Positions 27,725-50,737 of a stretch of 64,000 nucleotides of DNA are shown here, piece after piece. Under the pieces are notes generated by a model. The model had not been told where the DNA came from. It saw nothing but the letters and a program-made list of their open reading frames with translations, and searched no databases. The first letter of the stretch is position 1, and every line of letters starts with the position of its first letter. Made by a program: the position numbers and the translations under genes. Source of the stretch: Candidatus Binatia bacterium (GTDB lineage Bacteria; Desulfobacterota; Binatia; HRBIN30); assembly GCA_044450645.1 (NCBI GenBank), contig JBIOJG010000015.1, positions 39,512 through 103,511 of the forward strand, in the 5' to 3' direction.

Positions 27725-28028
27725 AAGGCCCGCGTTTTGCCGGTGTCCAGGGGTTGAGGGACCACAACGGGCAACCAGCCGTGTTTGTCGGCCCGGAGGC
27801 GCGCTAGCCAATCCCATGACCAGCTAGCTGCCTTACGACGTGCAGTGTCAGCAGGCTGAGGGGCCGAGCAGCTCCGATTCTACGGCCGGTTCGGGCTAAG
27901 CATGTCCTCAGCGCATCTGGGGAAAACGGCACGGAAGTGCCAGCGCCGCCGGCCTGAAATCCAACTCCGGCGTGGGTACCAATAGGCTTTCCGGCTGATG
28001 GCACGGACATTGTTGTAGAGTGCAAGCA

Positions 28029-29339
28029 ATGAACGCGACGCCTCCAAACAAGAGGAACACGGTCGTCCTGCTCCGGTGGGTTCTCATCATCGCGTTCTCC
28101 TATTTGCTGGTGCTGGACGGATCCCAGCCGTACCCTCAGGCCTGTGTGGTGGTGTTGATCGCCGCGGCCCTGGCTTCGAATCTCGTGGTTGCGCGGATAC
28201 CAGAGGCCTGGGCGCTCCACCCGGTGTTTGATTTCGGCGTGGTCCTCTTCGATTCTGCCTGGGTCACCTTGGGATTGATCTGGGCACCGAATGTGTCCGA
28301 GGACTTGTTCTTGCTCTATTTCCTCGTGATCTTTGTCGCCGCCATGGGCGAGTCCTTGTTGACCACAGTGGGCAGCGCCGTCCTCGTCGGGATCGTCTAC
28401 GGGGCGACGTTGTCATTTCAGCCTAGTGGTGATTTCCGGCTCACATCCACAGCGCTGCTGCGCGTGCCATTCCTCTTCGTCGTGTCACTGTTTTATGGCT
28501 ACTTCGTGACGGAAATCCGTACTGGCCGCAGTGAAGCGAATGATGCCAAACTCCGCGAACAAGCCAAGAGTGAGTTGCTGGCCGCGGTGAGTCATGACTT
28601 GCGCGGTCCCCTCGGAAACGTGGAGAACCTGATCGCGTTGGTTCTCGAAGATGAAGCGCAGAAGCCGGCGGACGCCCGGGTGCTCCTCTTGCGCGCCCAG
28701 GCGAACGTGCGCCGCGTCAGCCTGCTGGTCACCAATCTCTTGCAGGCGGCCTGCATCGAGGCCGGTCAGCTGCAACTGCAAACGGCCCCCGTCCAGCTCA
28801 ACGACATCGTCGAGGACATGTTCAATATCGAGTCCGGGGCGGCTTCGCTGAAGCAGGTGACGCTCCGCAAAGAAGTCGAACCTGAGCTTCCAATCATCGA
28901 TGCGGACTTCATGCACATGGGGCGAATCGTTCAGAATCTCGTCGACAACGCCATCAAGTACACCAACGCAGGCGGAACGGCAGTCATCCGCACGGCGCAC
29001 GATGCAGAGACGGTGAGTGTGAGTGTGGAGGACAGCGGGTCCGGGATGGACGAGGCGCAGTGCAAAGAGCTGTTCGCCCCGTACCGGCGCGTGCATCTTG
29101 GTGGCTACACCCCGGGGATGGGGCTTGGCTTGCACATCGTGAAGAAACTGGCGGAAGCCCAGGGAGGCACGGTAATCGTGCATAGCACGCCAGGCGTGGG
29201 ATCGACCTTCGTCGTCTCGCTTCCGCGCACCCTTGCGCCGAGAGCTTCCACTCCGGTGAAGAGACGCAAAGCCGCGGTACAGTCCCCTTCGTCGGTGCGC
29301 CCGCTGGACCACCCGCTGCCCAGCCCTCGGGCGGCCTGA
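28029..29339 (+). CDS. Membrane sensor histidine kinase (multi-TM sensor, HisKA, HATPase_c)
   Basis: Five to six N-terminal TM helices. H-box LAAVSHDLRGPL. N/G boxes LVDNAIKYT … DSGSGMD … GMGLGLHIVKKLAEAQGG. ATG at 28029 (MNATPPNK). Confidence 0.8.
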   Translation: MNATPPNKRNTVVLLRWVLIIAFSYLLVLDGSQPYPQACVVVLIAAALASNLVVARIPEAWALHPVFDFGVVLFDSAWVTLGLIWAPNVSEDLFLLYFLVIFVAAMGESLLTTVGSAVLVGIVYGATLSFQPSGDFRLTSTALLRVPFLFVVSLFYGYFVTEIRTGRSEANDAKLREQAKSELLAAVSHDLRGPLGNVENLIALVLEDEAQKPADARVLLLRAQANVRRVSLLVTNLLQAACIEAGQLQLQTAPVQLNDIVEDMFNIESGAASLKQVTLRKEVEPELPIIDADFMHMGRIVQNLVDNAIKYTNAGGTAVIRTAHDAETVSVSVEDSGSGMDEAQCKELFAPYRRVHLGGYTPGMGLGLHIVKKLAEAQGGTVIVHSTPGVGSTFVVSLPRTLAPRASTPVKRRKAAVQSPSSVRPLDHPLPSPRAA

Positions 29340-34790: not shown

Positions 34791-36053
34791 TTACGGTCGT
34801 GTTGAACTCAGCGACCGCAAGTACTCCACCAGATCCCGCATGTCAGCGTCGTGAAAGCGGGGCCAGGGAATGCCGCGCTCACGAATCTTTATCTCCATCG
34901 CCGGCGCATGGTTCCACAGGGCCGAGGAAAGGGCCAACGGAGAAGACAGGGCAGGGGAGCGGGAGAGATCGGGGGCGAGCCGTTTCTCAGTGCCACGCGG
35001 GGTGTAGTGGCAGAGGATGCATCCCTTTTCGATAAAGACGTCGTGCCCCTTCACGGCATCACCGGGCGGGTCAAAGTACTGCAGGAAGAACAGGTAGGCC
35101 ATTAGGTCCGAGATCTCCTGGTCAGAGAACTGTGGCAACGAAATGCCGAGCGCCTGCATCGTGGCCCACATGTTTGGCTCGTGATTCCACAGCCGGCCGG
35201 CGACTTCTGTCACGCTGCGGTGGAGATCTGCCGTGGCGAGGTCTGGTCCAACGTGGCCGCCGGTTCCACCGACACTGTGGCACTTGATGCAGCCTTTCGC
35301 TTCGAAGACCTTCCTGCCCCTCGCCGGACTACCGGGAGCCATGTCTTTCTTTTCTGTACTCGTATCGCTCGAGGCGCTCCGAATGTAGGCAAAGATGTGC
35401 GCCAGGTCCCCGTCGGAAAACTCCGGGCGCGCGATGCCGCTCTCGCCCATTTTGAGAGCCATCGCCGGGCTGTGACTCCACATGGCAGCGGCCAAGAACA
35501 AGGGCGAGGAGTAGTGTTTGTACTTATCAAGCGACGGCCCCACCTGTTTGCCGGCACCACCGATGGCGTGGCACTTGGCACACCCCATTCCGGAAAACAG
35601 CAGCTCGCCCTTGCTTGGGTCACCCGGTCGGTCGAAGTAGTTCAAGAAGTAGAGAAAGGCCGCGAGATCCGCCATCTCCTCGGTACTGATCGTCAAGTGG
35701 GGGATGCGCCGCTCGCGCATCTTCTCGATCATCTCGGGCGAATGATTCCACAAAACTCCCGCCAGTTGCATGACACTCTGCCACACCCCGACTTTCCCCA
35801 AGTCGGGACCCAAGGTGCCGCCCTCGCCCCAAATCGAATGACACATCGGACAGCCCTTCTGCAGGAAGACTTGCCGACCCGCCAGGGGATCGGTGGGCAA
35901 CGCGTCGGTTTCCGTGTCGGCGCACCACGATCTCACGGGCGCTAGAAGCATCCCGCTCAGCAGCACTGCGAAGGCCCATCCCAACCATCGCCGTCTCGCC
36001 GTTGAACTATGGAGTGCCACGCTCACGCTGCCTCGCTCAAACCGGGAAAACAT
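34791..36053 (-). CDS. Tetra-domain c-type cytochrome (four tandem class-I monoheme cytochrome c domains)
   Basis: Four CxxCH sites (CPMCH, CAKCH, CIKCH, CILCH). Each follows a G…KGC and precedes G.GG..GPDL, so four repeated class-I domains. N-terminal signal-like region (RRRWLGWAFAVLLSGMLLAPV). ATG at 36053 chosen; 36122 is possible. Confidence 0.75.
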   Translation of the reverse strand: MFSRFERGSVSVALHSSTARRRWLGWAFAVLLSGMLLAPVRSWCADTETDALPTDPLAGRQVFLQKGCPMCHSIWGEGGTLGPDLGKVGVWQSVMQLAGVLWNHSPEMIEKMRERRIPHLTISTEEMADLAAFLYFLNYFDRPGDPSKGELLFSGMGCAKCHAIGGAGKQVGPSLDKYKHYSSPLFLAAAMWSHSPAMALKMGESGIARPEFSDGDLAHIFAYIRSASSDTSTEKKDMAPGSPARGRKVFEAKGCIKCHSVGGTGGHVGPDLATADLHRSVTEVAGRLWNHEPNMWATMQALGISLPQFSDQEISDLMAYLFFLQYFDPPGDAVKGHDVFIEKGCILCHYTPRGTEKRLAPDLSRSPALSSPLALSSALWNHAPAMEIKIRERGIPWPRFHDADMRDLVEYLRSLSSTRP

Positions 36054-36209
36054 CCTGATGCGCTCCACCGCCGCAGCGAATTCTTTCTCCCACCGCTCGC
36101 GGATGTCCCACACAGGCGCCATCGGAGAGAGTTTTCAACAATAGCACAGGCAGCAGGCTCTACGCAGGTCGGGTGGTCAAAGCCGCGGGAGAACGGGACC
36201 AGGGTGCGG

Positions 36210-37562
36210 TCAGGCGGCGTCCCGTGGATCGAGCACTATGCCGAGACGGAACGCTTTGTCGTACAAAGCACGGCGACTGATGCCGAGTCGCTTGGCGACT
36301 GCGGTTTTATTCCAGTTCATATCGACCAGTGTGCGCTGAATGAGTTCACGCTCCAAGTCTTCGAGCGTGGTCAGCTCCTGCGGCAAGCTACGATTCTCGG
36401 CCGGCTCGAGTGAGGGGAAATCCCGTCGCCGCAGCACCGGCCCCTCCAACATGATCATGGCCCGTTCGACGACGTTCTCGAGTTCCCTCACGTTTCCCGG
36501 CCACGAGTAGCTGCGCAGGAGTTCGAGCGCGTCAGGGGCGATGCTGGGAACGGGTTTCTTGACGTTGATGGCTTGGATCCGAACGAAATGGTCCAGCAGC
36601 AACGGAATATCCTCGCGGCGCTCGCGCAGCGGCGGCATGTGGATGTTCACCACACTGAGGCGGTAGTACAAGTCCTCGCGGAACGTACCGGCGGTAATCA
36701 TGCGGCTGAGGTCGCGGTTCGTTGAGGCGATGATCCGCACGTCAGCCTTGATGATGCGTTCGCCGCCGACGCGTTTGTATTCTTTCTCCTGGATCACGCG
36801 CAGCAGTTTCGCCTGAAAGGCGGAGCTGGTCTCAGCGACTTCGTCGAGAAACAGCGTGCCGCCGGCGGCCGTCTCGAATAGCCCTTTCTTGGTGATGATC
36901 GCACCGGTGAACGCGCCTTTCTCGTGTCCGAAGAACTCGCTCTCGATCAACGTCTCGGTGAGAGCGCTGCAATTGACGGCGAAAAAGCTGCGTTCCGCGC
37001 GTGGCCCGTGATAATGCAAGTAGCGCGCGACGAGTTCTTTACCCGTACCGCTCTCCCCGGTGATCAGCACGCGGCAATCTGAATCATGCAGCTTTTCTAG
37101 CGTTTCGATGATGGCGCGGATTGGCGGCGACTGGCCGACGATCGGCCGCAGCGGAAGGGCGCCGAGTTGACGCCGCAGGGACGCATTCTCCGCAACCAAA
37201 CGGCGGTAGTCGAGCGCCTTGCTCACCTTGAACGCGAGTTCGTCGGGAGGGAAGGGCTTGGCGAGAAAATCGGCGGCGCCTTTCTTCACCGCCTCCACCG
37301 CGGCTTCGATGCTGGCGAAGCCGGTCACCATGATCACCACCGAGCCCGGCCGTTCCACGTTGATGCGCTCGAGCAGGGTCATGCCCGAGACATCGGGAAG
37401 TTTGAGGTCCAGGAGGATCACGTCGGCGGGTTCCTTCGCGAGCGCGGCGAGCGCTTCGGCACCGGTGGAGCAGGTGCGCACCGCATAGCCCGCCTGCGAG
37501 AGAACTTGCTCCATGTTGAGCGCCATGGAGAGTTCGTCGTCGACGACCAAGACGGTGTTCAT
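36210..37562 (-). CDS. Sigma-54-dependent response regulator (NtrC family: REC, AAA+, Fis-type HTH)
   Basis: REC (VLVVDDE … [10 protein letters not shown]). AAA+ Walker A ([10 protein letters not shown]). GAFTGA motif ([11 protein letters not shown]). Walker B LFLDEV. C-terminal HTH ([15 protein letters not shown]). Confidence 0.9.
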
Positions 37563-38881
37563 GCAGCCTCCTCACGTGCCAGGGGGCTGGCGTCGACCGG
37601 AAGACCGACCGTGAAAGTCGAGCCGCTTCCAGCTGCGCTGTCAACGCGCATCGTGCCGCCGAGCCGGCGGACGATGGTCAGCGAGAGCGAAAGACCGAGG
37701 CCGACGCCATCGGCGCCGTTCTTGGTGGTGAAAAAGGGGCTGAAGACGTCATCCAAGTGCTCACGCGGAATGCCGTGTCCATTGTCGCGTACCCGCACCT
37801 CCACCGTCTCCGGCTCCGCCCCGAGGCCGGTTTCGACGACCACCTCTCCGCCGTCTTCCACGGCGTCGAGGGCGTTGCACAACAGGTTGACGACTACCTG
37901 CCGCAACGCGCCCTCCTGCCCGTGTACCCGTAAGCCCGGCGTCAGGCGTTGCTCAATGTGGACGTGCCGCTGAGTTGCTCGGTTCTCGAACAGCAGGATG
38001 ACGCCGTGGGTCACCTTTGCAATGTCGACACTTTGTGGCGTCCCGTCCTGCTGGGGCGAAAGCGCCAGCAAGCTGCGGATAACTCCGCCGATGCGAAATG
38101 CAGACTCCGCGATGGTGGCGAGATCCTGCAGATAGCGTTGTGACAGGCCGTCGTGCTCCGCCTGCCGCCGCATCACCTCTGCCTTGCCGACGATGATCGC
38201 GGCGGGATTGTTGATGTGATGGGCCACGTCGGCAGCGAGACGGCCGACGGACAGGTGCCGGTACGTCTGCTCGAGGATCTGATTGCGGTGCTGCAGTTGG
38301 AGATTGACCTCGAACAGGCGGTGGCGATTGGTGCGCAACTGGCGGGAAACCAGGGCCAGCGAGTGCGCAATAAAGAACGCAAATCCCAACCGCAGCATCA
38401 GTTCCTCCGGTGCGCATCGCTGCGCCGAGGGAAGCCAGAGATACAGGGTCGTGTACAACCCGGCAAAGCCAGTGGCGGCGGCGATGCCCACCGTCGCGCC
38501 GAAGTAGAACGCGTGCAGTGCGACGAGCACGTAGAACGCGAGATACACGCCGGACATCGGCTCCGCTGACCACAGACAGATGAGGAAGAGGAACACGAGA
38601 TCCGCAGGGAGTACCGCCAAATAGGCGCGGGCACGGACCTGCGGGCGACGCCACACCTGGAGATACAGCGTCAGTGAGTACGCGACGAACGCTGCGGTGA
38701 GAACAAAGCCCTTGAGCGTTACGCCTGGTGCGGCGAATCTCCATAACCACACGGCTGCTGCCCCAGCGGATCCCACGCGCAACGCGAGAAAATACCGGTC
38801 CGCCTGATCAAACGCGGACGCCGATACCTGGCTGTCCGCGCTAGGCGAGAGTTGGGAGAACCACACGGAAAACCGATCCAT
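37559..38881 (-). CDS. Membrane sensor histidine kinase (partner of the NtrC-like regulator)
   Basis: About six TM helices. H-box AADVAHHINNPAA. HATPase N/G boxes (LLCNALDAV … DNGHGIP … GVGLGLSLSLTIVRRLGG). Stop overlaps the NtrC-like ATG (ATGA). ATG at 38881 chosen. Confidence 0.8.
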   Translation of the reverse strand: MDRFSVWFSQLSPSADSQVSASAFDQADRYFLALRVGSAGAAAVWLWRFAAPGVTLKGFVLTAAFVAYSLTLYLQVWRRPQVRARAYLAVLPADLVFLFLICLWSAEPMSGVYLAFYVLVALHAFYFGATVGIAAATGFAGLYTTLYLWLPSAQRCAPEELMLRLGFAFFIAHSLALVSRQLRTNRHRLFEVNLQLQHRNQILEQTYRHLSVGRLAADVAHHINNPAAIIVGKAEVMRRQAEHDGLSQRYLQDLATIAESAFRIGGVIRSLLALSPQQDGTPQSVDIAKVTHGVILLFENRATQRHVHIEQRLTPGLRVHGQEGALRQVVVNLLCNALDAVEDGGEVVVETGLGAEPETVEVRVRDNGHGIPREHLDDVFSPFFTTKNGADGVGLGLSLSLTIVRRLGGTMRVDSAAGSGSTFTVGLPVDASPLAREEAA

Positions 38882-40232
38882 GGCCAACTTTACTGCTGAC
38901 CTCAATGCTGCCCCCGTGAGCCTTGATGATCCCGTAGCTGACCGAGAGGCCCAGCCCCGAGCCGTCGCCGCTCTTTTTCGTGGAGAAGAACGGGTCAAAG
39001 ACGCGCCCGATGGTCTCCGGACGGATCCCGGTGCCCGAGTCAATCACCTCCACGTGGATGCAACCGTTGTTCGGCCAGGTACGCAACCGAATTGTCCCAC
39101 CCTCCGGCATCGCATCTTTCGCATTCTGCAACAGGTTGAGGAACACTTGCTTCAGTTGGTTGGCGTCAGCACGTACGAGCGGGAGCGCGTCGTAATGCTC
39201 GGGGACGATCGTGACATTCACGCGTGCGAACGACGGCCCGACAAAGCGCACGGTTTCGCGAAGAACCTGGTTCACATCGGTTGCCGCCAATGTCGTCTCG
39301 GACTTCCGCGCAAAAAGCAGCAGGCCACGCACAACCTCGGCGATGCGGCCGATCTCACGGCCCATGACGTCGAAGTCCTGGCGGCAGAGTTGCGGGCAGC
39401 TACGCTCGTCCGCCATCGCCTGCAACTCCTGGGCCTTTCCCATCATGATGCCGAGGGGATTGTTGATCTCGTGCGCGATTGCGGCAGCCATCTCACCAAC
39501 GACGCTGAGTTTCTCCGCTTGGATAAGCTGTGCTTCAACCTCACGATTGCGTGTATGCAGTCCCATCTCGGTACGGCGTGCACGGAGAAAGATGTGTGCC
39601 AAGAGAACGAAGAGCACGGCGCCTACTCCGAAGGATATGAGCCACAGCATCCGCCGGGCAGTGTCGAGGTTGCGGAAGAAGGTTACGGGGTTCTTGTGGA
39701 TCTCGAAAACCGCGTACACCTTGCCGTCGGATGACGCTGTCGGGACGTAAACCTGCAGCATGCGGCGACCGTCAGAGCCCTCACCACCGCCGGCGCGCAA
39801 CGCCTTGGGTGTTGCCACCTCTACCCCCGGCTGTCCCTTGAGCGCGGCGGCCAGCTGAGGGTTGCTGTGTTCGTCCTCTCGCATCCATTGTGCATCGTCG
39901 GACCAGACCGCCGTTCCGTGCTCATCGTAAACCTTGACGTGGAGAATTTCGGGAATGCTGGTGAGATGCTGCGTGAGGTGGACGAAGGCCCAGACCTTGT
40001 TATTGCTGGCAGCGAAGCGGAACTGTTCTGGAGTCAAATCCAGGTTCGTCATTGCCCGCACCGCCTCCGTCGTAACCTGGGCTTCACGGTCGAAGAGGTT
40101 GCGCGTCAGCAGGCGGTCTACCGCACCACCGAGGACGGCGATCGCGAGCCCACTGCACAGCAGCATGGCCGCGAGAAATCGCTGGAAAGGGTCCAGCCGG
40201 ATCTTGGTTCGCACTGTCCTGTCCGATCGCAT
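38841..40232 (-). CDS. Sensor histidine kinase with periplasmic sensor domain (second kinase in the block)
   Basis: TM, ~170-aa periplasmic region, TM. H-box AAAIAHEINNPLG. N/G boxes (LLQNAKDAM … DSGTGIR … GSGLGLSVSYGIIKAHGG). ATG at 40232 (MRSDRTV…). Confidence 0.8.
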   Translation of the reverse strand: MRSDRTVRTKIRLDPFQRFLAAMLLCSGLAIAVLGGAVDRLLTRNLFDREAQVTTEAVRAMTNLDLTPEQFRFAASNNKVWAFVHLTQHLTSIPEILHVKVYDEHGTAVWSDDAQWMREDEHSNPQLAAALKGQPGVEVATPKALRAGGGEGSDGRRMLQVYVPTASSDGKVYAVFEIHKNPVTFFRNLDTARRMLWLISFGVGAVLFVLLAHIFLRARRTEMGLHTRNREVEAQLIQAEKLSVVGEMAAAIAHEINNPLGIMMGKAQELQAMADERSCPQLCRQDFDVMGREIGRIAEVVRGLLLFARKSETTLAATDVNQVLRETVRFVGPSFARVNVTIVPEHYDALPLVRADANQLKQVFLNLLQNAKDAMPEGGTIRLRTWPNNGCIHVEVIDSGTGIRPETIGRVFDPFFSTKKSGDGSGLGLSVSYGIIKAHGGSIEVSSKVGHGSVFRVVLPTLA

Positions 40233-40429
40233 GCCTGGTGGCGAAAGGCAAGCGCCGTACTCCGTCCAGGAAATAGGCTGCGCGGGAAGAACGGCCCCAG
40301 ACCGCTTGCAGATCCCCGCTGTGCATTTATTGCGCGGTGTGCAGAAGCTGCGCATTGCGATTTCGGTTGACCTGTGTCGGCGTGGGCTGTCAGCCAATCA
40401 GAAACTGCGGTGGCCGTATGACGACAAGC

Positions 40430-40443
40430 GGCACATCTCTTGC
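40430..40443 (+). promoter_or_regulatory. Candidate sigma-54 (-24/-12) promoter upstream of the NHL/cytochrome cluster
   Basis: cGGCACatctcTTGCg has GG at 40430–40431 and GC at 40442–40443, exactly GG-N10-GC. It matches the TGGCAC-N5-TTGC consensus except at the first T. It lies ~100 nt upstream of the 40546 start, immediately downstream of the NtrC-type activator genes. Confidence 0.5.
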
Positions 40444-40545
40444 GCAGTCACGTGGCCGGAATGGAATCCGTAGGTCCGGACAGCGGCCGACGCATCATGC
40501 GCCGCAGGGACCCATGGGGGGGCGAGAACAAGAGGAGATCGCGTC

Positions 40546-41757
40546 ATGCGAGAAGAATGCATCGTGACCAGGTACACGTCTCATGATCTCTGGCGTGGCG
40601 CCCGAGCGGCCCTGCTCGGCATCGTAGCCCTCGGCCTGTGCGGCTGCTTCCCGGGCGTCAAGCCCAATGCGTCAGACAAACTCATAGAGCTGATGTGGCC
40701 TGAGCCTCCACTCAAGACGCGCATCAAGTTCGTCGGCAATCTGACTGGAGAGCATGAGCTGGCCACCGGCTTCAACTGGAAGAAGGACCTCACCGAATTT
40801 CTCGCCGGCACCCCGACCACGGAGACGGAGCTGGCGAACCCGATGGGCATTGTCGTCTCCGCGGATGCACAGCGGGTGTACGTGACCGATCTTCCCCAGC
40901 AGCGCGTGTTCGTCTTCGACCTGGCCAACAAGAGCGTGAAAGCCTGGCCCGCAGAGCAGACCAAGGTGGCTGGTCCACTGGGGATCGCGCTCGATGCGGA
41001 CGAGAACGTGTACGTCGTCGACTCGACCGAGAAGAAGGTCGTCGTGCTCAACCGAGACGGCAAGCCCGTACGTACGTTTACGCACCCAAGCTTCATCCGC
41101 ATTACCGGCATTGCGGTCGATTCGAAGCGGGGACGCATCTACGTGTCCGACACCTCGCATCAGAAGTCGCCCGAGCACAAAGTCCGGGTCTTCGACCTGC
41201 AGGGGCAGTACGTCAAAGAGTTGGGCAAGGGGAAGGGTTTCGAAGAGGGGTATCTGCTCTTCCCGACCTATTTGACTGTGGATGACGCAGGGCTCGTCTA
41301 CGTTGCGGACTCGATGAATGCTCGCGTGCAGGCGTTCGATCCCGATTCGGGAGCGGTGGTGAGAACCTATGGGCAGCGTGGCACCGCCTACGGCGAGTTC
41401 GAACGGCCCAAAGGGCTCGCTCTCGATACCTTTGGCAATCTGTACGTCGCCGACTCAGGCTGGGCCAACGTCCAGATCTTCAACAGGAAAGGGCAGGTCC
41501 TGCTCTACTTCGCCGGTCGTGGCCGCTATCCCGGGCTACTCAACAACCCGGCCGGCATGGCCATCGACAAGAACAACCGTATCTACGTCGCCGACACCCA
41601 GAACTTCCGGTTGAGTGTTTATCAACTCGTGAACACGACCGCTGATGACAGTTTTGAGACCGCTGATCAGACGCCGCAGGGCAGCGCGCCCGGGCCGGTG
41701 AAGGCGTCGCGGGACAAGCAAGAAGCAATGGTACCAGGGACGGTTCGCAGCAACTAG
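40546..41757 (+). CDS. NHL-repeat beta-propeller lipoprotein (paralog 1)
   Basis: Lipobox LGLCGC. Six NHL repeats (YVTDLPQQRVFVFD, YVVDSTEKKVVVLN, YVSDTSHQ…VRVFD, YVADSMNARVQAFD, YVADSGWANVQIFN, YVADTQNFRLSVYQ). Confidence 0.85.
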   Translation: MREECIVTRYTSHDLWRGARAALLGIVALGLCGCFPGVKPNASDKLIELMWPEPPLKTRIKFVGNLTGEHELATGFNWKKDLTEFLAGTPTTETELANPMGIVVSADAQRVYVTDLPQQRVFVFDLANKSVKAWPAEQTKVAGPLGIALDADENVYVVDSTEKKVVVLNRDGKPVRTFTHPSFIRITGIAVDSKRGRIYVSDTSHQKSPEHKVRVFDLQGQYVKELGKGKGFEEGYLLFPTYLTVDDAGLVYVADSMNARVQAFDPDSGAVVRTYGQRGTAYGEFERPKGLALDTFGNLYVADSGWANVQIFNRKGQVLLYFAGRGRYPGLLNNPAGMAIDKNNRIYVADTQNFRLSVYQLVNTTADDSFETADQTPQGSAPGPVKASRDKQEAMVPGTVRSN

Positions 41758-41889
41758 GGCGCACACCGACTACCAGGGAGGCGTTCGGCCGAGGGAGGGT
41801 ACCGTATGACCTAAAGCACTGGAGGGGATGGCAATTGGACGTATCTAAGTCACAAAGTCACTAAACGAAAATTATGGGGGTTAACTTCT

Positions 41890-42693
41890 ATGAAGATGAA
41901 GATGTTGTTGTGGATGGCAGCTGCAGTATTACTGCTTAGCCCGCCCGTCCTCTGGGCCGCGCCAGGTGATCCCGGCACGGGTCTGGCGACAACCAATCAT
42001 GACTTCACCGACGCGGCGAATTACACGACCAGCACGCCTGTGGGTCTCTGTACGTTCTGCCACACGCCCCACAAGGCGCAGCACACTGCGCTGTTGTGGA
42101 ACCATAGCGATACGTCGAACACCTTTTCGTGGACCGACAACACGAAGACCGCAGCTGGCACGAGTCTACCGACGTTCACCAAGACCTGGAACGGCCCGAC
42201 GCCGAAGTGCCTCTCCTGCCATGACGGTAGCGTAGCGGTCGGCGATGTTGCCTGGTTCGATGAAAAAGCCCAGCTCATCACTACCACTAGCGTCACGCCT
42301 GGTATCCTCGATGCCAGCGGCAAAATCATCGATACATCGCATCAGGTGGGCGTCGGTGGCAGCATGAACGGCAACCACCCCGTGGTGGTTCCATATCCGG
42401 GCGTTGGCTCGAAGCACTATGCCGGCGGGAACAGCGGCACCAGCATCGTCACCGCGGAGTGGCAGGGTGACCCGACCGCCCTCGGTGTCGTGCTCTATAA
42501 GGCCAGTGACAACACCCTGGCGGCCAGCATCAACCGTGTGACCAACTCGCCTGTTGGCGCAGACAACCTCGGCGTCGAGTGCGCCTCGTGTCATGATCCG
42601 CACAACAAGCTCACCGTCGACGCGAAATTCCTACGCGGCATGATGACGGGGAACGACACCAATTACCTCTGCCTGAAGTGTCACATCAAGTAG
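41890..42693 (+). CDS. Secreted tetraheme c-type cytochrome
   Basis: Signal peptide MKMKMLLWMAAAVLLLSPPVLWA. Four CxxCH sites (CTFCHTPH, CLSCHDG, CASCHDPH, CLKCH). The N-terminal module is homologous to the start of the 12-heme protein at 47211. Confidence 0.85.
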   Translation: MKMKMLLWMAAAVLLLSPPVLWAAPGDPGTGLATTNHDFTDAANYTTSTPVGLCTFCHTPHKAQHTALLWNHSDTSNTFSWTDNTKTAAGTSLPTFTKTWNGPTPKCLSCHDGSVAVGDVAWFDEKAQLITTTSVTPGILDASGKIIDTSHQVGVGGSMNGNHPVVVPYPGVGSKHYAGGNSGTSIVTAEWQGDPTALGVVLYKASDNTLAASINRVTNSPVGADNLGVECASCHDPHNKLTVDAKFLRGMMTGNDTNYLCLKCHIK

Positions 42694-43081
42694 CCAGAGA
42701 GAGGATCTCGGACGGCATCGCAACCGATTGCGGCGATGATTGGACGGCCTGAGTAGCAAAGCACGCGGCGCGTACGCCGAGTGTAGCGCAGTCTAGGCCG
42801 TCCTTCGTCGCTCCCGGTTGTCCAGAGAAGGATGTTACTGTTCGATCGACATGCCTGCCGTACGGCGCCGCGCGCTCCGCCCGGAGTGATTCCCTTGCTT
42901 TTCTGTTGCCCGCGTGGTTGTTCTTTCCATCTACTTCAGAGCCGGCCCGTTGGAGCAGAGGGACCGACAAAATGGCGGGAGACAACCGCTTCGCGTTCTC
43001 GCGTGTGTATGTGCACGCACGGAACGCGCCTGCCGCGCCGTAACCCGTCCGGGTCGTGACAACCCTTTTCCTTGAGCAGTC

Positions 43082-43735
43082 ATGGTGTCCGCCGCGAGGC
43101 ACATGGGTACTGCCGTATTTTCCGCAACGATCCTGTTTTCCATTGCGGCCGGCGGTTGCGACCCTGCGATCCGCTACGAAGTGCTCAGCCGTGTGTTCGA
43201 CAACGTCCCGCCTCCCGGGGCGACACCGCCGCCGCGCCGCGCTAAACGGGTACGTCGCCAGCTGCCGGAGAAGGTTGCCAAGGCAGAAGGCACACCGGTC
43301 TCCACGCCGACGCCCGGCCCCCAAGGGCCGCCAATTGAGGCGGTAACCGAGTGGGACAAGGCGGTAGAGATGTTGCCGAAGGACGCGGCCGACGCACCCG
43401 ACTGGATGACGGCACTGTCGCAGGGAGTGATCGCGCCACGTTCGTCGCTGGATCCGAAGGAAGACACGCCCCCAGAACCGCTGCCGCTCGATGTCGAACT
43501 GGAGCCGTCCGGGAACCCCGATATGAAGGTCATCTTTCCGCACGCGGCCCACACGCAATGGTTGCAGTGCCCCAACTGCCATCCCGACATCTTCCAGATG
43601 CAGAAGGGGGCTGACCGAATCGCGATGGGGGACATTTTCGCCGGGCAGTTCTGCGGCAAGTGCCACGGGAAAATGGCGTTCGATGTAGCAACATCATGCC
43701 CGCGCTGCCACGTGCAGATGGGAGGAGGCGGATGA
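43082..43735 (+). CDS. Triheme cytochrome c7/c3-type lipoprotein
   Basis: Lipobox-like AAGGC. Pro-rich linker, then a ~75-aa c7-type domain with three CxxCH (CPNCH, CGKCH, CPRCH) and distal His residues (FPHAAH). Confidence 0.8.
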   Translation: MVSAARHMGTAVFSATILFSIAAGGCDPAIRYEVLSRVFDNVPPPGATPPPRRAKRVRRQLPEKVAKAEGTPVSTPTPGPQGPPIEAVTEWDKAVEMLPKDAADAPDWMTALSQGVIAPRSSLDPKEDTPPEPLPLDVELEPSGNPDMKVIFPHAAHTQWLQCPNCHPDIFQMQKGADRIAMGDIFAGQFCGKCHGKMAFDVATSCPRCHVQMGGGG

Positions 43736-44121
43736 GAGGCGAAACAGCGCGTTGGCATACGTCCCTTTCCCACGGGGAAAGTGGACCCTCGATCGGACTC
43801 ACTGCGGGTATCATCGCCGCGCTCTGCGTCCTCTCTCTCACCGCCGCCTACGCGGTGCCCGGCGACATCGTCTTTCCGCGCCAGGATACGCAAATCACAG
43901 AGGGCATTCCCAGCGCCGTTTTCCCGCACTGGTTCCATCGCATCCGCTATCGCTGTTTCGTGTGCCACCCCGATGTCTTTCCGATGGAAGTGACGAACGA
44001 GGGAATCACGATGGATGCCATCAACGCGGGAAAGGCCTGCGGAGCCTGCCACAATGGTCAGACCGCGTGGGCACCCTCGTTCGAAACCTGTACCCGGTGC
44101 CATGTGCCCCCGCCGGAATGA
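43732..44121 (+). CDS. Triheme cytochrome c7/c3-type protein (paralog)
   Basis: Signal peptide then a c7-type domain with CFVCH, CGACH, CTRCH and FPHWFH. ATG 43732 overlaps the upstream stop (ATGA). Confidence 0.75.
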   Translation: MRGETARWHTSLSHGESGPSIGLTAGIIAALCVLSLTAAYAVPGDIVFPRQDTQITEGIPSAVFPHWFHRIRYRCFVCHPDVFPMEVTNEGITMDAINAGKACGACHNGQTAWAPSFETCTRCHVPPPE

Positions 44122-46183
44122 ATCCGCCACCCTCTTTCCGCGATGCATCGCCGCGCTCATTGCCTCAATCTTCGTGCTGTGCTGGGCCGCGCCAGCGGTC
44201 CGAGCAGAGGATCAGCCCGGCAATCCGCTCAGCTCTCCCGTCAGGTTCGTCCGCATGCCGAGCCTCCGCTCGACCTTCAGTTTGCTTCCGCATTTCCGAA
44301 AGTGGGAAGCCGATCTGCTGTTCGGCTACGAGTGGGACCGGCAGGATGCCTCCGTGGCGAACGAACCAAGCAGTCACTTCGAGCGCATGACGTACACCGA
44401 AGAACTGCGGCTTGGGAGTAAGGGCTACTTTTACGACCCGCGCTTGCTCAGCATAGGACTGAGCGGCACTTTCGGGCTCTTCCAGGAGCAGGCCTCCGTG
44501 TCGGGAGAGCCGAGCAACAGCAACGGTACGCTGCTGGGCTATGATGCGAGCGCCGTGCTGTTTCCAGAAAAACCGTATTCCCTCACCGCCTTTGGCAATC
44601 GCACCGAGGATATCGTGACGCGGGAATTTGCCGGCACGACGAAAGTGTTGTTGGAGAACTACGATTCGTCTCTGCTGCTCCGCGACATGCCGCTGGATTC
44701 GGTCTTCGGCCTCCGGCACGAACGGGTGCGCGAAAATCTCGACTCCGGCCCCAACTCTGCGCGCCGGGAGGAGGTGCGGGATGTCGCCTCCTATCACGGC
44801 ACGCGGGTGGGAGAGGTGAGCGATCTGGACCTGAATTACGAGTTCGACGATGTGGCGGACAAGGTCCTCCCGACGTTGGACTTCCAGACCCATGACGGTG
44901 GGGTCACCTACCACTATTTCTTCGGCCCGTATCTCGAAAAGAACTTCTACTTGCGCGCCCGCATCTTCGACCGAGAAGGGCGGTTTTCAACGCTCGTGGG
45001 CCAGACGAGCGAGTCCCTGCGCATCGATCACACGGAGACCTTTTCCAGCAACTACGATTACAGTTTGCTGTACAGCAGCGTGAGCGGTGCAGGCAAAAGC
45101 CTCACTCACGCCGGATCGGCCGGCATCCAGCACCAGCTCTTCGGCAGTCTGAGGACGGACCTGCAGGCGCTCGGGAATTACTCCGACTTCGAGAACGGGC
45201 AGGCGTTCGGCTACGGCGGAACGCTGGGCGTCACCTACACCAAGCGCCTCCCCTTCGAAGGTCGGTTCACAGCGGGCGGCCGCGGCGCTTATCGCATCGA
45301 CGATCAGACGCTGCCGAGCGGCACGCTGCCGGTTTTCCAGGAGCGGCATGCGGTTCAGGATTTCCAACCGATCTTTCTCACCAATCCACGCGTCCAGCTG
45401 GATACGATCGTGGTCACCGACGAGGCGGGTAAAGAAGTGTTCAAAGAGGGCTTCGATTACACGGTGACGCTAGTCGGCGATCTCGCTGAATTGTTGATCC
45501 AGCCCGGGGGCGACCTGCACACGCGAGGTGTGACCGGCATTCTCATCGATTACCGCTTTGCGACCGCCCGCAAGCTCGAATTCGCCACGTCATCGAGAGG
45601 CTTCAACCTGGGGATCGACTATGACTCGTTCTCGGTCTATTTCCAGCGCCAGCAGACGGATGAATCGCTCCTGAGTGGTGACAATATCAATGCCCAGTTC
45701 CTTGACGACATCACCGATCAGACCGCGGGCGCGCAGGTGCGCTGGTCCGGCCCGCAAATCCAGGCCTCGGGCCTCGGCGAGTACCGCACGTACGATTCGA
45801 GACGCGTGGCGTTCACGACACCGCATGCGCTGCAGTCACTTTCGTGGCTCTCTTCGCGCACCTTGACATGCAACGTGACGATGAGCGAGAGTTTCTTTCA
45901 TTTTTCCAGACCGCAGAGCCGTGACACGCAAACCCTCCTGGCTCGCCTGACGACCACCTGGCGGCCAGCGCGGCGGCTCTTCATCGATGCGTTCGCGAGC
46001 TACCTGCGGCAGGACGACACCGTCGCCCCGGACGAGCGTCTTTATGACACGGGGTTGCGTGCGCAATTCGAATACGGCAGGTTGCGGCTGATCCCGACGA
46101 TTGCGTTCGCGCGCCGCGAAGTCGGTACGGCCAAGACCGACGAGGTGCGCGCCACCCTCACCCTCATCAGGAAGCTCTTCTGA
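44102..46183 (+). CDS. Large outer-membrane beta-barrel protein (porin-like component of a porin–cytochrome conduit)
   Basis: Signal peptide (…VLCWAAPAVRA|ED). ~690 aa of alternating amphipathic beta-strand pattern rich in Y/F/G/T. C-terminal aromatic residue (…LIRKLF). No cofactor motifs. Confidence 0.65.
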   Translation: MCPRRNESATLFPRCIAALIASIFVLCWAAPAVRAEDQPGNPLSSPVRFVRMPSLRSTFSLLPHFRKWEADLLFGYEWDRQDASVANEPSSHFERMTYTEELRLGSKGYFYDPRLLSIGLSGTFGLFQEQASVSGEPSNSNGTLLGYDASAVLFPEKPYSLTAFGNRTEDIVTREFAGTTKVLLENYDSSLLLRDMPLDSVFGLRHERVRENLDSGPNSARREEVRDVASYHGTRVGEVSDLDLNYEFDDVADKVLPTLDFQTHDGGVTYHYFFGPYLEKNFYLRARIFDREGRFSTLVGQTSESLRIDHTETFSSNYDYSLLYSSVSGAGKSLTHAGSAGIQHQLFGSLRTDLQALGNYSDFENGQAFGYGGTLGVTYTKRLPFEGRFTAGGRGAYRIDDQTLPSGTLPVFQERHAVQDFQPIFLTNPRVQLDTIVVTDEAGKEVFKEGFDYTVTLVGDLAELLIQPGGDLHTRGVTGILIDYRFATARKLEFATSSRGFNLGIDYDSFSVYFQRQQTDESLLSGDNINAQFLDDITDQTAGAQVRWSGPQIQASGLGEYRTYDSRRVAFTTPHALQSLSWLSSRTLTCNVTMSESFFHFSRPQSRDTQTLLARLTTTWRPARRLFIDAFASYLRQDDTVAPDERLYDTGLRAQFEYGRLRLIPTIAFARREVGTAKTDEVRATLTLIRKLF

Positions 46184-47214
46184 TGCGAGGCGCTCTGCTG
46201 AGTCTGTTCATGGCTGCGCTTCTCGTCGCCGGGTGCGCGCAACCGAATCCGCGTGAAGCCGCCGAAGCCCCGCCGACCCCTGCCGCCAAGCTGGTCTGGC
46301 CACCACCGCCGGACACCGCCAAGATCGAGTACGTCACGAGCATCACCGGAACCGGTGATCTGCATGTTGCCAAATCGTTCTTTCGCCGGCTGGGCGAGCT
46401 GATCCTCGGCCCCACGGAAGAATGGCTGGTGCGGCCAACCGGCGTGGCTGCGCGGGACGATTTTCTCGCCATTGCCGACGCCGGGACTCCTGCCCTGTTT
46501 CTGATCGATCGGGCCGCACGGGCCTTCCACAAAATCACGCAAGCGGGCGAAGAGGACCTGGTATCTCCGGTGGGAGTAGCAATCGCAGGAGAGAACGTGG
46601 TCTATTTAAGCGATTCGTACCTCCGTCGCCTCTACCGCCTCGACCGCGAAGGCCGGCTACTGCATGCATGGGGAGGCGATGACCTCGCGCGGCCAACCAG
46701 CTTGGCATACGACACCCAGCGGCGGCGCCTCTATGTCGCTGATGCCGGAGCCCACCGCGTCCTGGCATACGATCCGGATGGAACACTCCTCTTCGCCTTC
46801 GGCGAGCGCGGCCTGGCCGACGCTGAATTCAACTGGCCGAGCCACCTGTGCGTCGACCGTGACGGGCTGATCTACGTGGTCGACTTTTTCAACTTTCGCG
46901 TGCAGATCTTCGACCCCGACGGTCACTTCCTCTTCACGTTCGGTCACCAAGGGGACGGCTCCGGCGACTTCTCGCGGCCGAAGGGCATCGGTGTGGACAC
47001 TCGCGGGCACATCTACGTTGTCGACGCGCTCTTCGACGCCGTCCAGATCTTCGATTACCGTGGCCGGTTTCTGCTTGGCTTTGGCAAGCAAGGCCGCGAC
47101 GCGGGCGAGTTCTGGCTGCCGAACGGCCTGGCAACGGACCGGGATCGGATCTACGTGGCGGACGCCTACAATCAACGGGTCCAGGTGTTTCGGTTCATCG
47201 GCGCAGAGGAATGA
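46183..47214 (+). CDS. NHL-repeat beta-propeller lipoprotein (paralog 2)
   Basis: Lipobox LLVAGC. NHL repeats (YVADAGAHRVLAYD, YVVDFFNFRVQIFD, YVVDALFDAVQIFD, YVADAYNQRVQVFR). N-terminal segment KLVWPPPPDTAKIEYV parallels LIELMWPEPPLKTRIKFV of the 40546 protein. ATG overlaps the upstream stop (ATGA). Confidence 0.85.
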   Translation: MRGALLSLFMAALLVAGCAQPNPREAAEAPPTPAAKLVWPPPPDTAKIEYVTSITGTGDLHVAKSFFRRLGELILGPTEEWLVRPTGVAARDDFLAIADAGTPALFLIDRAARAFHKITQAGEEDLVSPVGVAIAGENVVYLSDSYLRRLYRLDREGRLLHAWGGDDLARPTSLAYDTQRRRLYVADAGAHRVLAYDPDGTLLFAFGERGLADAEFNWPSHLCVDRDGLIYVVDFFNFRVQIFDPDGHFLFTFGHQGDGSGDFSRPKGIGVDTRGHIYVVDALFDAVQIFDYRGRFLLGFGKQGRDAGEFWLPNGLATDRDRIYVADAYNQRVQVFRFIGAEE

Positions 47215-49064
47215 CCCGTTTCACGCGCATCGCCGTTTCCGTTTGCCTGCCCGCACTGTCGTGCCTGGTTCTGGCGCGGCCCGCCTGGGGTGGCATCGAA
47301 CACACGATCCACAACTTCAGCGTCAGCGGACCCCAGGCACGGGGCGCACCGCCGCGCGCGCCGGCGGTGAGCGGCACGGCTCCGACCGTGGGGATCTGCG
47401 TGTTCTGTCACACGCCGCACAACGCCAATCCGACCGCCGGACTGTGGAACCACCGTCTTCCGGCCGTCAGCTACAAGTTGTACGAAAGCTCCACGCTGCA
47501 AGCACAGATCAATCAGCCGACCGGATCGTCGCGACTGTGCCTGTCCTGCCATGACGGCACCCTCGCTCTCGGTGACCTACGCGTGCATCCACGCGGCGCA
47601 CATCTGTCGGTGGCCACGTTATCCGGTCGTGCCTCGCTGGGCACCGATTTGTCGGACGACCACCCGGTGTCGTTCCTCTACGATATCGCCCTGGCAAGCC
47701 GCCAAGGCGCGCTCGCCAATCCCGGCGCCTTGCCACCCGAGGTCCGGCTCGACAAAGCGGGCCAGATGCAGTGCACTTCTTGCCACGATCCGCACCAGGA
47801 CAAGTTCGATCATTTCTTGGTGATGGACAACCGCGGCGCGCGTCTGTGCACCGCATGCCACCATATCAAGGGCTGGTCGGACTCTTCGCATGCGACCTCG
47901 CCAGCAACGCAGACGCGGACGGGAGCCAATCCGTGGCCGCACACACCTTACGTCAGCGTCGCCGACAACGGCTGCGAGAACTGCCACCGGCAGCATGCCG
48001 CGGGACATCCCGAATGGCTTCTCCTCAACCGCACGGTGAGCGAAGACTGCTTCACCTGCCACGATGGCAGCGTGGCTGCTCGGGACGTCCGCCGATCGTT
48101 CAACTCGCTGAGCTCGCATCCGGTCGAGGTCACCGAGGCACTCCATCAGCCCAATGAAGATCCGCTGTTCATGAAGCGGCACGTGGCCTGTGGGGACTGT
48201 CACGACCCGCACTCGGTGCGCGCGGGTACGCGTCCCAGTGCCGGCGCACCACCGCGCGGTGCGCTCGGTACCATGGAGGTCACTGGTGCGGTGGCAGGCG
48301 TCGACGCCGCCGGCGGGCGCGTACGCCAGGCCCGGACCGAGTACGAAGTGTGTTACAAGTGCCATGGCCTGCAAGAGGAAGCGACCTTCCTGGTTGCGCC
48401 CCGCTTCATGCTCGTCCGTAACGACAACGTGACCAATGTACGCCTGCAATTCAGCACGAACAACGTGTCGTTCCACCCCGTCGAGGCCGTCGGCCGGAAT
48501 CCCACCATCAGCGGGTTCGAGGCGGGTTATACCCCCTCGACCATTTTGTCATGCACCGATTGCCACAACAGCGACGAGAGCGACGCCGCGGATACTCGGG
48601 CCGTACGCGGGCCGCACGGGTCGGCATACGAGCCCATCCTCGTCCGCGAGTACCAGGTCGGTGATCCGAGCCAGGAATCGTATCAGAGCTACGCCCTCTG
48701 CTATCGCTGCCACAACCGTACCGCACTGCTCTCCGACACCGGGGGCTTTCCGCACCGGTTGCACGTGGTCGACCAGCAGGCCTCGTGCGCGGTGTGCCAC
48801 GACGCCCATGGCTCACGGCAGAATCTTTTTCTGGTGAATTTCCTCGCGCGTGGGAAAACCGGCAATGCCGTCGTCACGCCGTCAGCAAGTACGAAGCAAC
48901 TCGAATTCCAGTCGTTCGGGCGCGGCCGGGGCCAATGCTCCCTGACCTGTCATGGGAGTGAGCACAACGCCAGACAGTACCCCGCGCCGACGACGCCGTC
49001 ACAGAAGGCCGTCCCTTTGCCGGCGCGACAACGCAATCCGATGAGTTTTGGTGTCGAACGGTGA
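47211..49064 (+). CDS. Secreted dodecaheme c-type cytochrome (11 CxxCH plus 1 CxxxCH)
   Basis: Signal peptide. CVFCHTPH, CLSCH, CTSCH, CTACH, CENCH, CFTCH, CGDCH, CYKCH, CTDCH, CYRCH, CAVCH, plus CSLTCH (CX3CH). ATG overlaps the stop of the NHL gene (ATGA). Confidence 0.85.
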   Translation: MTRFTRIAVSVCLPALSCLVLARPAWGGIEHTIHNFSVSGPQARGAPPRAPAVSGTAPTVGICVFCHTPHNANPTAGLWNHRLPAVSYKLYESSTLQAQINQPTGSSRLCLSCHDGTLALGDLRVHPRGAHLSVATLSGRASLGTDLSDDHPVSFLYDIALASRQGALANPGALPPEVRLDKAGQMQCTSCHDPHQDKFDHFLVMDNRGARLCTACHHIKGWSDSSHATSPATQTRTGANPWPHTPYVSVADNGCENCHRQHAAGHPEWLLLNRTVSEDCFTCHDGSVAARDVRRSFNSLSSHPVEVTEALHQPNEDPLFMKRHVACGDCHDPHSVRAGTRPSAGAPPRGALGTMEVTGAVAGVDAAGGRVRQARTEYEVCYKCHGLQEEATFLVAPRFMLVRNDNVTNVRLQFSTNNVSFHPVEAVGRNPTISGFEAGYTPSTILSCTDCHNSDESDAADTRAVRGPHGSAYEPILVREYQVGDPSQESYQSYALCYRCHNRTALLSDTGGFPHRLHVVDQQASCAVCHDAHGSRQNLFLVNFLARGKTGNAVVTPSASTKQLEFQSFGRGRGQCSLTCHGSEHNARQYPAPTTPSQKAVPLPARQRNPMSFGVER

Positions 49065-49134
49065 GGCCGAGCGGGAGGCGGCGGACATGCTCTGATGTCC
49101 GCCGCCCTTTGCTGCTCACATGATTTGACGAATA

Positions 49135-49437
49135 CTACTTCTTCAAACCCACCAAATACGACACCACGGCGCCCAGATCTTCGTCACTGAGGGTCGCCTT
49201 CGGCATTTTGGAGTCCGCCTTCTTCGACTTCGGATCCTTGATGTACTCCTTCAAGTACGCCTCGCCCTTTGCCCCAGCGGCATCAAGTGCCCCACCGTTC
49301 TTTGCCATCGGTCCGCCTACCCCGCCGATGCTGTGGCACGTCTTGCACTTCTTCTCGTACACTCCGGCGCCGTCTGCTGCCCAGGCTACCTGAGAAAGAA
49401 TCGCGAGAGCGGCGATCCCGAACACAATCCGCTTCAT
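49135..49437 (-). CDS. Small secreted monoheme class-I cytochrome c
   Basis: Signal peptide MKRIVFGIAALAILSQVAWA. Single CKTCHSIGG. C-terminal Met (SKMPKA) as likely sixth ligand. 100 aa. Confidence 0.8.
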   Translation of the reverse strand: MKRIVFGIAALAILSQVAWAADGAGVYEKKCKTCHSIGGVGGPMAKNGGALDAAGAKGEAYLKEYIKDPKSKKADSKMPKATLSDEDLGAVVSYLVGLKK

Positions 49438-49576
49438 AATGACCTCCTCCTAGGGGTTAGTGTTGTGTGCCCGCTTCCCATACCCGACACGGGCAAATAG
49501 CAAACCGGGCTGACGTGATCAAGAATGGCGATCAAAATGCAGAGGTGCGCTGGATGAAGCCGCGTGCGAGATCTTG

Positions 49577-50737
49577 TTACAAGTGGCTGGTGAGATCAGT
49601 CAACACTTTCCCCGCCTCGAAGTGCTGTTCCGCAATCTCACGCGCCGCTTGAGCGTTGGCCTCGTAGTCGGACGCGATGGAGGTGACAGCACGGATCGCG
49701 TCGTCGAGTGTTCGTACCGCGAACAGACCTTTGCCGGTTGGCAAGACACGTCCGAAGCCTGTGTCCTGGGTCACCACGGGGCGTCCCGCCGCGAGATAGC
49801 ATGCGCTGCGGTCGCTGAACCAACCGCTCGCCAGGCGTACGTTGAGATCCTTGGCGACGGTGAATTCGCCCTTGGAGCTTCGGATGAAGTCCCGATACGT
49901 CAACACATCGTGTGACACCGCAACCGGATCGGTGATCTCCCACCCATGCTCTCGCAATAACTCGGCGTCGTCGGGGGTCTTGTCGACGTCCATTGCCATC
50001 GCAAATGATTCGCCGCTGTGTTCCGGAAGTTCGAGGAACGTCATCCATTCCGTTCGCTTGCTCCACGAGTATGCCTGACCCTGGAAACGGACGTCGCGGC
50101 GGCGTTCGTCCCAGCGTCCGATGGTGGTGAATGGCGCCCGCACATCGGCCGGCAAAGGCGGCCAGAATGCCAGGGCGATCGGCTGGCGTGTCGGCTGCCA
50201 GGCGAAGCGGTCGGTGGGGATGGCACAGCCCGGCGAGCCGATGTTCTCGCCAATGGTGAAGTGCAGATCGTGCTCCGCCAGCAACTCGCACAAGCTCGGA
50301 TCACCTTCCGCCACCTGGATCTGCGTGAAGGCCGGATCGATATCGATGAAGATCTTTACCTGCTTCGGGCGGCGCGGCAGGCGGTTGACCGGCGCGAGCG
50401 TGATCACCGCGCCGGCATCGTTCAGGAGCGCATCGGTCTCGGCACGGCTGAGGCCGGAATGCCGATCCTGGTGTGCATCCCAGAACACCCACCGATCCCC
50501 GAATCCGAAGCGCTGGAACAAATCCGCTGCAAACGCGATGCCCGCATCCGGAGGGACGTGCATGTTGCCGGTGAGCGGATCGAAGCAGTCGCCGTAGTAG
50601 GCGGTGTCCTCATAGAAGTACGGATCAAATCCGATGGCGCGCAACCCGAGCAGATAGTGCAAGACCTGCCAGGCGTAGCCGCCGAGCGGACACCGCACCA
50701 GATAGCCGGCGAGAACGATCTTGTCTGCGTGTCTCAC
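49577..50737 (-). CDS. Uncharacterised GT-B-like (glycosyltransferase-like) protein, tandem paralog A
   Basis: Homologous over its full length to the two upstream genes. N-terminal Rossmann-like KIVLAGY…PLGG. C-terminal GWFSDRSACYLAAGRPVVTQDTG resembles the GT1/CgeB-type nucleotide-sugar-binding motif. Inferred GTG start at 50737 overlapping the upstream stop (GTGA). The 200-aa N-terminal extension in the ORF track was rejected. Confidence 0.6.
   Translation of the reverse strand: MRHADKIVLAGYLVRCPLGGYAWQVLHYLLGLRAIGFDPYFYEDTAYYGDCFDPLTGNMHVPPDAGIAFAADLFQRFGFGDRWVFWDAHQDRHSGLSRAETDALLNDAGAVITLAPVNRLPRRPKQVKIFIDIDPAFTQIQVAEGDPSLCELLAEHDLHFTIGENIGSPGCAIPTDRFAWQPTRQPIALAFWPPLPADVRAPFTTIGRWDERRRDVRFQGQAYSWSKRTEWMTFLELPEHSGESFAMAMDVDKTPDDAELLREHGWEITDPVAVSHDVLTYRDFIRSSKGEFTVAKDLNVRLASGWFSDRSACYLAAGRPVVTQDTGFGRVLPTGKGLFAVRTLDDAIRAVTSIASDYEANAQAAREIAEQHFEAGKVLTDLTSHL

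Follow-up and report, generated by a model that had tools for sequence, protein, structure and literature searches.

The motif at positions 40429-40444 on the plus strand of the window, by which we mean the whole 64-kb stretch of DNA analysed here, is very probably a functional, activator-dependent sigma-54 (RpoN) -24/-12 promoter, to judge from its sequence and its conservation, and the transcript that would start from it most likely covers all six genes of a multiheme cytochrome cluster (40546-49064). We find the site convincing because it is the sole exact core in the window, is well placed, has been kept in related loci and is accompanied by tandem palindromes. A first-pass annotation of this DNA had proposed a sigma-54 promoter ahead of the cytochrome cluster, and this proposal is now supported by conserved cores in six of six close relatives and by an enrichment of such sites across 80 distant loci.

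The probable promoter motif and its conservation in close relatives

The GG-N10-GC motif that had been announced about 100 nt upstream of the first NHL gene was found at 40429-40444, where its end is separated by 101 nt from the ATG (40546) of that gene. It corresponds to the sigma-54 core cGGCACatctcTTGCg on the plus strand (here CGGCACATCTCTTGCG), with the GG at 40430-40431 and the GC at 40442-40443, exactly 10 nt apart, and it lies in the non-coding 313-nt gap 40233-40545, directed at the cytochrome cluster. Read as GGCAC-N5-TTGC, CGGCACATCTCTTGCG matches the GGCAC and TTGC parts of the sigma-54 consensus perfectly. Relative to the extended consensus YTGGCACG-N4-TTGCW (Barrios 1999, quoted in PMC2725144), it carries a C for T at -26, an A for G at -20 and a G for W at -11. 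Reckoned from the -12 C at 40443, the predicted transcription start would lie near 40455.

Taken by itself, the motif is no better than chance, given that the exact core GGCAC-N5-TTGC occurs once in the 64-kb window against 0.97 occurrences expected (both strands) and that its weight-matrix score of 11.6 bits ranks only fifth in the window. The matrix is an approximation of published frequencies, and the exact-pattern statistics are independent of it. That the site, carrying C at -26 and G at -11, reaches only a middling 11.6 bits relative to the general consensus likewise counts against a promoter. Unlike the motif alone, its placement is beyond chance expectation, with ~0.002 such cores expected in the 313-nt gap in the given orientation.

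A matrix and pattern scan, as the first-pass annotation had suggested, revealed no second exact core anywhere in the window and, leaving one match near the window edge unclassed, no other match of at least 11.5 bits established as intergenic. Three higher-scoring matches, at 18164(+), 48895(-) and 50528(-), were rejected as promoters because they fall inside coding sequence. The unclassed match at 253-268(+) (TGGCTGGCCTGTTGCT, 12.1 bits) is too near the edge to be called intergenic or coding. A PAS histidine kinase gene (631-3264) begins ~360 nt farther downstream, with a hybrid receiver-kinase gene (3463-5025) behind it. Another candidate, TGGCACGGACATTGTT at 27999-28014(+), has a near-consensus -24 element but GT for GC at -12 and is probably no promoter; it is located just ahead of a histidine kinase ORF (28020-29339), too near the ORF start. 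In the 313-nt gap itself, no minus-strand sigma-54 site that could serve the kinase operon was seen, even at a threshold of 2 bits. As for a sigma-70 promoter, the alternative named in the first-pass annotation, our scans returned no sigma-70-like match in 40000-42000 or in 41700-49600, with the proviso that such scans may overlook promoters of this host, as Binatia promoters are uncharacterised.

An argument for the motif comes from its close relatives, six independent loci (L081, L082, L126, L127, L128, to which L129 is identical, and L130) whose NHL proteins are 56-83% identical to that of the window; a metagenome scan with the single protein contributed only one further close relative, namely L082. 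All six loci carry a plus-strand GGCAC-N5-TTGC that precedes the first cluster gene by 31-94 nt (L081, CGGCACATGTATTGCC; L082, CGGCACACCTCTTGCG; L126, GGGCACACCTCTTGCG; L127, CGGCACGTCTCTTGCG; L128, CGGCACGGGAATTGCC; L130, TGGCACGGCTGTTGCT). At a background rate of 2.0e-5 cores per strand-nt, derived from 2 Mb of comparison sequence, the chance of meeting the core within 150 nt in six out of six relatives is ~8e-16. In the five-sequence alignment A3, with a mean column identity of 58%, GGCAC..T.TTGC forms the only contiguous invariant block. The divergent kinase-kinase(-activator) layout is also the same in these relatives wherever the contig is long enough.

Genes on either side of the gap

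By architecture only, the plus-strand genes behind the motif resemble two described clusters, Uet (undecaheme electron transfer) in Candidatus Tenderia electrophaga and Occ in Candidatus Dechloromonas occultata (bioRxiv 10.1101/2022.05.06.490989; bioRxiv 10.1101/695007; PMC10734462). Undecaheme, tetraheme and triheme c7 cytochromes and two NHL proteins are common to them, and a large protein of the window cluster may correspond to their outer-membrane protein. The leading gene (40546-41757) encodes a 403-aa NHL-repeat beta-propeller (Pfam NHL/SGL; UetH/I-like by architecture) that is probably a lipoprotein; its Cys34 is nearly invariant in protein alignment A1, and at 100% identity the protein matches P0001, which comes from the annotation of a Candidatus Binatia MAG. 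It is followed by genes for a tetraheme c-type cytochrome (41890-42693; 267 aa, four CxxCH; UetA-like by architecture) and a triheme c7-type cytochrome (43082-43735; 217 aa, three CxxCH; Pfam Cytochrome_C7, NCBIfam nanowire_3heme; UetD/E/G-like by architecture). The fourth gene (44015-46183, start codon uncertain) specifies a putative outer-membrane protein of 722 aa with a signal-peptide-like helix, for which Pfam and NCBIfam gave no family match; it sits where the UetC outer-membrane barrel stands, and other loci keep it at the same place. A second NHL-repeat beta-propeller lipoprotein (46183-47214; 343 aa) and an undecaheme c-type cytochrome (47211-49064; 617 aa, 11 CxxCH; UetJ/OccP-like by architecture) complete the cluster. 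The last three genes overlap or abut (at 46183 and 47211), and the internal gaps of the cluster measure 132, 388 and 279 nt. At a threshold of 9 bits, these gaps, including the one ahead of the tetraheme gene, are free of sigma-54-type sites, and neither they nor the 313-nt gap contain a terminator-like hairpin.

From the predicted start to the ATG, the leader of the first gene would span ~91 nt (40455-40545), with a ribosome-binding site AGGAG at 40533-40537 ahead of the ATG at 40546. We considered a leader RNA element and rejected it, as there was no Rfam match and the folding was no better than that of shuffled sequences (z = 0.61). The heptamer GGAATGG at 40459-40465 is shared with L081 (7921-7927), 15 nt past the TTGC and hence at about +5 to +11, and is not kept in the remaining close relatives.

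On the other side of the 313-bp gap, and divergent from the cytochrome cluster, lies an operon of two histidine kinases and an NtrC-type activator. These three genes had been described in the first-pass annotation as an activator and two kinases directly upstream of the cluster; Pfam bears out their identities, while their divergent orientation means that they are not upstream in the transcriptional sense. Kinase 1 (38841-40232, minus strand; HisKA and HATPase_c in Pfam) has two transmembrane helices flanking a periplasmic domain of ~160 aa. Kinase 2 (37559-38881, minus strand, within an ORF extending to 39043; likewise HisKA and HATPase_c), whose start codon is uncertain and for which the ATG at 38881 is one candidate, has several helices at its membrane N-terminus and lacks a large periplasmic domain. 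Both retain the H-box AH(E/H)INNP and the ATP-binding boxes; their transmitters are 34% identical and their sensor parts unrelated. Since one sensor is periplasmic and the other membrane-embedded, a single activator could receive two distinct signals; both kinases may feed the activator encoded next to them.

This activator (36210-37562, minus strand) shows the full architecture of the NtrC family of enhancer-binding proteins, with a receiver (Response_reg, 1.6e-28), an AAA+ sigma-54 interaction domain (Sigma54_activat, 1.2e-67) and a C-terminal Fis-type HTH (HTH_8, 7.8e-12), and its translation carries the Walker A sequence GESGTGKE and an intact GAFTGA. It scored below every named NCBIfam equivalog cut-off (AtoC, 449 bits as the best score against 714; NtrC, 413 against 559; PrsR of the PEP-CTERM type, 397 against 503; ZraR, 386 against 760), such that none of the equivalogs considered, GlrR and others included, could be assigned. 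A further tetraheme c-type cytochrome gene (34791-36122, minus strand) follows 87 nt downstream of the activator gene and is probably part of the same regulatory operon; L081 shows the same arrangement of an activator gene and a downstream cytochrome gene. In L081, the closest relative, a sigma-54-type site (TGGCATTGTTGTTGCG, 2553-2568, minus strand) separates the activator gene from the c-type cytochrome genes downstream of it; its counterpart in the window is just the 87-nt gap 36123-36209, which lacks such a site.

Neither the window nor ~1.4 Mb of fetched loci, searched in all six frames by regular expression, yielded an RpoN box, which counts against a sigma-54 promoter, and our literature search on Binatia and sigma-54 returned nothing relevant. 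We nevertheless infer that rpoN is present in this genome. That this lineage uses sigma-54 is suggested only indirectly, by its intact GAFTGA activator and by promoters conserved in the Binatia MAGs L052, L062 and L064.

Candidate activator sites and distant loci

The first-pass annotation had recommended a search for NtrC-type palindromes 80-200 bp upstream, and this range indeed holds a pair of tandem 17-bp imperfect palindromes of the type TGTGCA-N5-TGCRCA. The distal candidate site, UAS1 (TGTGCATTTATTGCGCG, 40320-40336), has two mismatches to TGTGCA-N5-TGCACA and the proximal one, UAS2 (TGTGCAGAAGCTGCGCA, 40338-40354), a single mismatch. They begin 109 and 91 nt before the motif, and their centres precede the predicted start by ~127 and ~109 nt. 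Allowing up to two mismatches, TGTGCA-N5-TGCACA has only six matches in 64 kb, of which two are the adjacent ones in this gap. On the other hand, the centre-to-centre spacing of 18 bp is unusual for pairs of NtrC-type sites and counts against their being activator sites. The window palindrome also differs from the site bound by NtrC, TGCACC-N5-GGTGCA.

Equivalent palindromes occur in three of the close relatives. L126 has a pair at the identical offsets of 109 and 91 nt (proximal site TGTGTAGAATCTGCACA, 91 nt), L127 a pair at 101 and 83 nt from the motif (proximal site TGTGTAGACTCTGCACG, 83 nt), and L081 a single copy upstream of the motif (TGTGCACGATCAGCACG, 81 nt); the activator HTH is nearly identical between the window and L081, which has the same palindrome type. 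Four close relatives additionally display minus-strand sigma-54-type sites that face the kinase operon (L127, 1798-1813; L081, 7626-7641; L128, 3346-3361; L130, 2935-2950). The site in L127 is faced by a second palindrome pair, and that in L081 has one palindrome match (7740) nearby. Such second palindromes are what an autoregulating adjacent activator would give, which suggests that the activator in these relatives may positively autoregulate its own operon. Between the palindromes and the promoter of the window, the sequence CAATCAGAAACTG is a weak match to the IHF consensus, and we do not claim it as an IHF site.

Beyond the close relatives, 80 distant loci (41-53% identity) were collected with an NHL protein profile; they belong to Burkholderiales, Gammaproteobacteria, Binatia, Myxococcota, Acidobacteriota, Nitrospinota, Methylomirabilis, Rokubacteria and others. 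According to a tblastn map, the cluster is also present in most of them, with a gene order conserved across phyla, and it is split or rearranged in many loci from other phyla; the Uet/Occ-type cluster is distributed widely and patchily. Within 250 nt upstream of the NHL and tetraheme homologs in the 80 loci, we counted 25 sites that reach 13 bits where 0.77 were expected, a 32-fold enrichment (P ~4e-29 to 1e-28), and the enrichment amounted to 21-64x over thresholds of 12-15 bits. An activator gene lies within the fetched region in 22 of the 80 loci, directly upstream of and co-oriented with the NHL gene in 14. L055 (Polyangiaceae) and L059 (Thermoanaerobaculia) show the order kinase-kinase-activator-promoter-NHL, and the L055 site (TGGCACATCTCTTGCG) is identical to that of the window at 15 of 16 positions. 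Counting against the promoter reading, no site precedes the NHL gene in many proteobacterial loci.

In many proteobacterial and other loci, the tetraheme (UetA-like) gene, and not the NHL gene, is the one preceded by the strongest sites (TGGCAC-N5-TTGC, 17-19 bits), at a distance of 50-200 nt (e.g. L001, 11272; L005, 5803; L015, 10123; L016, 6834; L026, 3399; L050, 7997; L061, 644; L075, 9228), and this is so even where the tetraheme gene stands apart from the remaining cluster or points the other way.

The palindromes of the distant loci are of other types. GTTAC-N6-GTAAC palindromes precede the sites in Burkholderiales-type loci (L001, L005, L036, L050 and L075) and TGAGA-N5-TCTCA palindromes those in L055 and L059, and a single universal palindrome was rejected, as a de novo count of inverted repeats revealed clade-specific types. 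HTH sequence and palindrome type differ together between clades. The activators therefore do not form one orthologous group, and this pattern suggests that the activator may have been repeatedly recruited or have diverged among clades.

Alternative readings and relation to known systems

If the motif is an activator-dependent promoter, sigma-54 holoenzyme would bind it to form a closed complex that is unable to open unaided. The activator (36210-37562), once one or both membrane kinases have phosphorylated it, would bind as dimers to the tandem palindromes at 40320-40354, assemble an ATPase ring and touch sigma-54 via its GAFTGA loop. The promoter would then open and transcription begin near 40455, proceeding into the NHL gene and most likely into the five same-strand genes behind it. 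How far the transcript extends is the part of this reading with the most serious competitor, since the internal gaps of 132, 388 and 279 nt, together with the separate tetraheme sites elsewhere, mean that one promoter need not serve six genes. The promoter could thus be real and activator-dependent and yet serve only the NHL gene, or the NHL and tetraheme genes, with the rest transcribed from internal promoters; in many loci of other phyla, a strong sigma-54-type site directly serves the tetraheme homolog by position, and the cluster layout is broken up or altered. We consider this rather unlikely for the window, where the gaps are devoid of sigma-54-type sites of at least 9 bits, of sigma-70-like promoters and of terminator-like hairpins, where all six genes share one strand and the last three overlap or abut, and where the gene order is one that is conserved across phyla.

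Bacteria that use sigma-54 often encode many activators, and the one acting here might be encoded elsewhere in the genome, the adjacent kinase-kinase-activator operon having other targets. No sigma-54 site precedes the regulator operon of the window, and the palindromes are only candidate activator sites, both of which would fit such an arrangement. A distant activator is nonetheless improbable, considering that the adjacency of activator and kinases recurs in 22 of the 80 distant loci as well as in the close relatives and that clades differing in HTH differ in palindrome type as well; moreover, the own site of the regulator operon in L127 is faced by the same palindrome type, with one match in L081. 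Still more improbable is that the motif arose by chance and that the cluster is driven by a sigma-70-family or other promoter. About one exact core is expected per 64 kb, the site holds only the fifth matrix rank, and a sigma-70 scan may miss the uncharacterised promoters of Binatia. Against this, the motif recurs at the same place in six of six close relatives whose flanks have diverged, the palindrome offsets are conserved, an intact activator gene is adjacent and no sigma-70-like match was obtained; the conservation in relatives, along with the enrichment across the 80 loci (P ~4e-29 to 1e-28), excludes a chance match for practical purposes.

As an activator-dependent sigma-54 promoter, the motif would belong to a well-known type of control, in which NtrC-type two-component systems act on sigma-54 promoters (NtrB/NtrC at glnAp2, AtoS/AtoC, ZraS/ZraR). 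Like these systems, the window combines a -24 GG/-12 GC promoter with paired palindromes ~100-130 nt upstream and with a regulator composed of receiver, GAFTGA-bearing AAA+ domain and Fis-type HTH, next to a membrane kinase gene. Unlike them, it has two kinases with unrelated sensors instead of one, and its target is a multiheme cytochrome cluster. In Geobacter sulfurreducens, sigma-54 (consensus TTGGCACGGTTTTTGCT) influences cytochromes of extracellular electron transfer through the RpoN regulon (PMC2725144). There the link to cytochromes is embedded in a global regulon, whereas the window has a dedicated adjacent activator and kinases with their own candidate sites. Term searches of the main texts of the three Uet/Occ papers (bioRxiv 10.1101/2022.05.06.490989; bioRxiv 10.1101/695007; PMC10734462) gave no mention of sigma-54, RpoN, a two-component system or a regulator tied to the cluster, and the promoter points to previously undescribed regulators of outer-surface cytochrome clusters. 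Tentatively, and with slightly more doubt than confidence, we extend this to the suggestion that Uet/Occ-type clusters may carry a dedicated sigma-54 module wherever they are found (Binatia, Myxococcota, Acidobacteriota, Burkholderiales, Gammaproteobacteria and others), that activators with differing helices and palindromes may have been recruited repeatedly, and that in one lineage two unrelated kinases may act on one activator.

The mechanism as such is textbook, and the value of the finding therefore lies in annotation and experimental access rather than in a new principle. What the Uet/Occ systems do, and in which direction (mineral or electrode oxidation versus metal reduction), is still debated on the basis of genomic and expression data. 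If the wider suggestion above is true, the two kinases would be the sensors that decide when the cell builds its electron conduit, and the promoter with its palindrome pair would offer a direct reporter for finding the kinase signals. Two handles would be gained, namely sensor domains that can be tested with ligands or redox cues and a promoter-palindrome region that can serve as a reporter in a tractable host. Besides, sigma-54 sites may help to delimit the genes of this system in uncultured lineages.

With regard to gene content, the window cluster has one triheme gene versus three in Uet/Occ, and Pfam detected no peptidyl-prolyl isomerase (UetB) or cupredoxin (UetF) domain among the genes of 40546-49064. 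The gaps 42694-43081 (388 nt) and 43736-44014 (279 nt) contain no obvious ORF, promoter or terminator; at the corresponding positions, homologous loci often have extra genes or further triheme modules. At the far end, the undecaheme gene is followed by a convergent gene for a monoheme cytochrome c of 100 aa (49135-49437, minus strand), and in L062 and L072, both Binatia-type loci, homologs of the latter adjoin the cluster.
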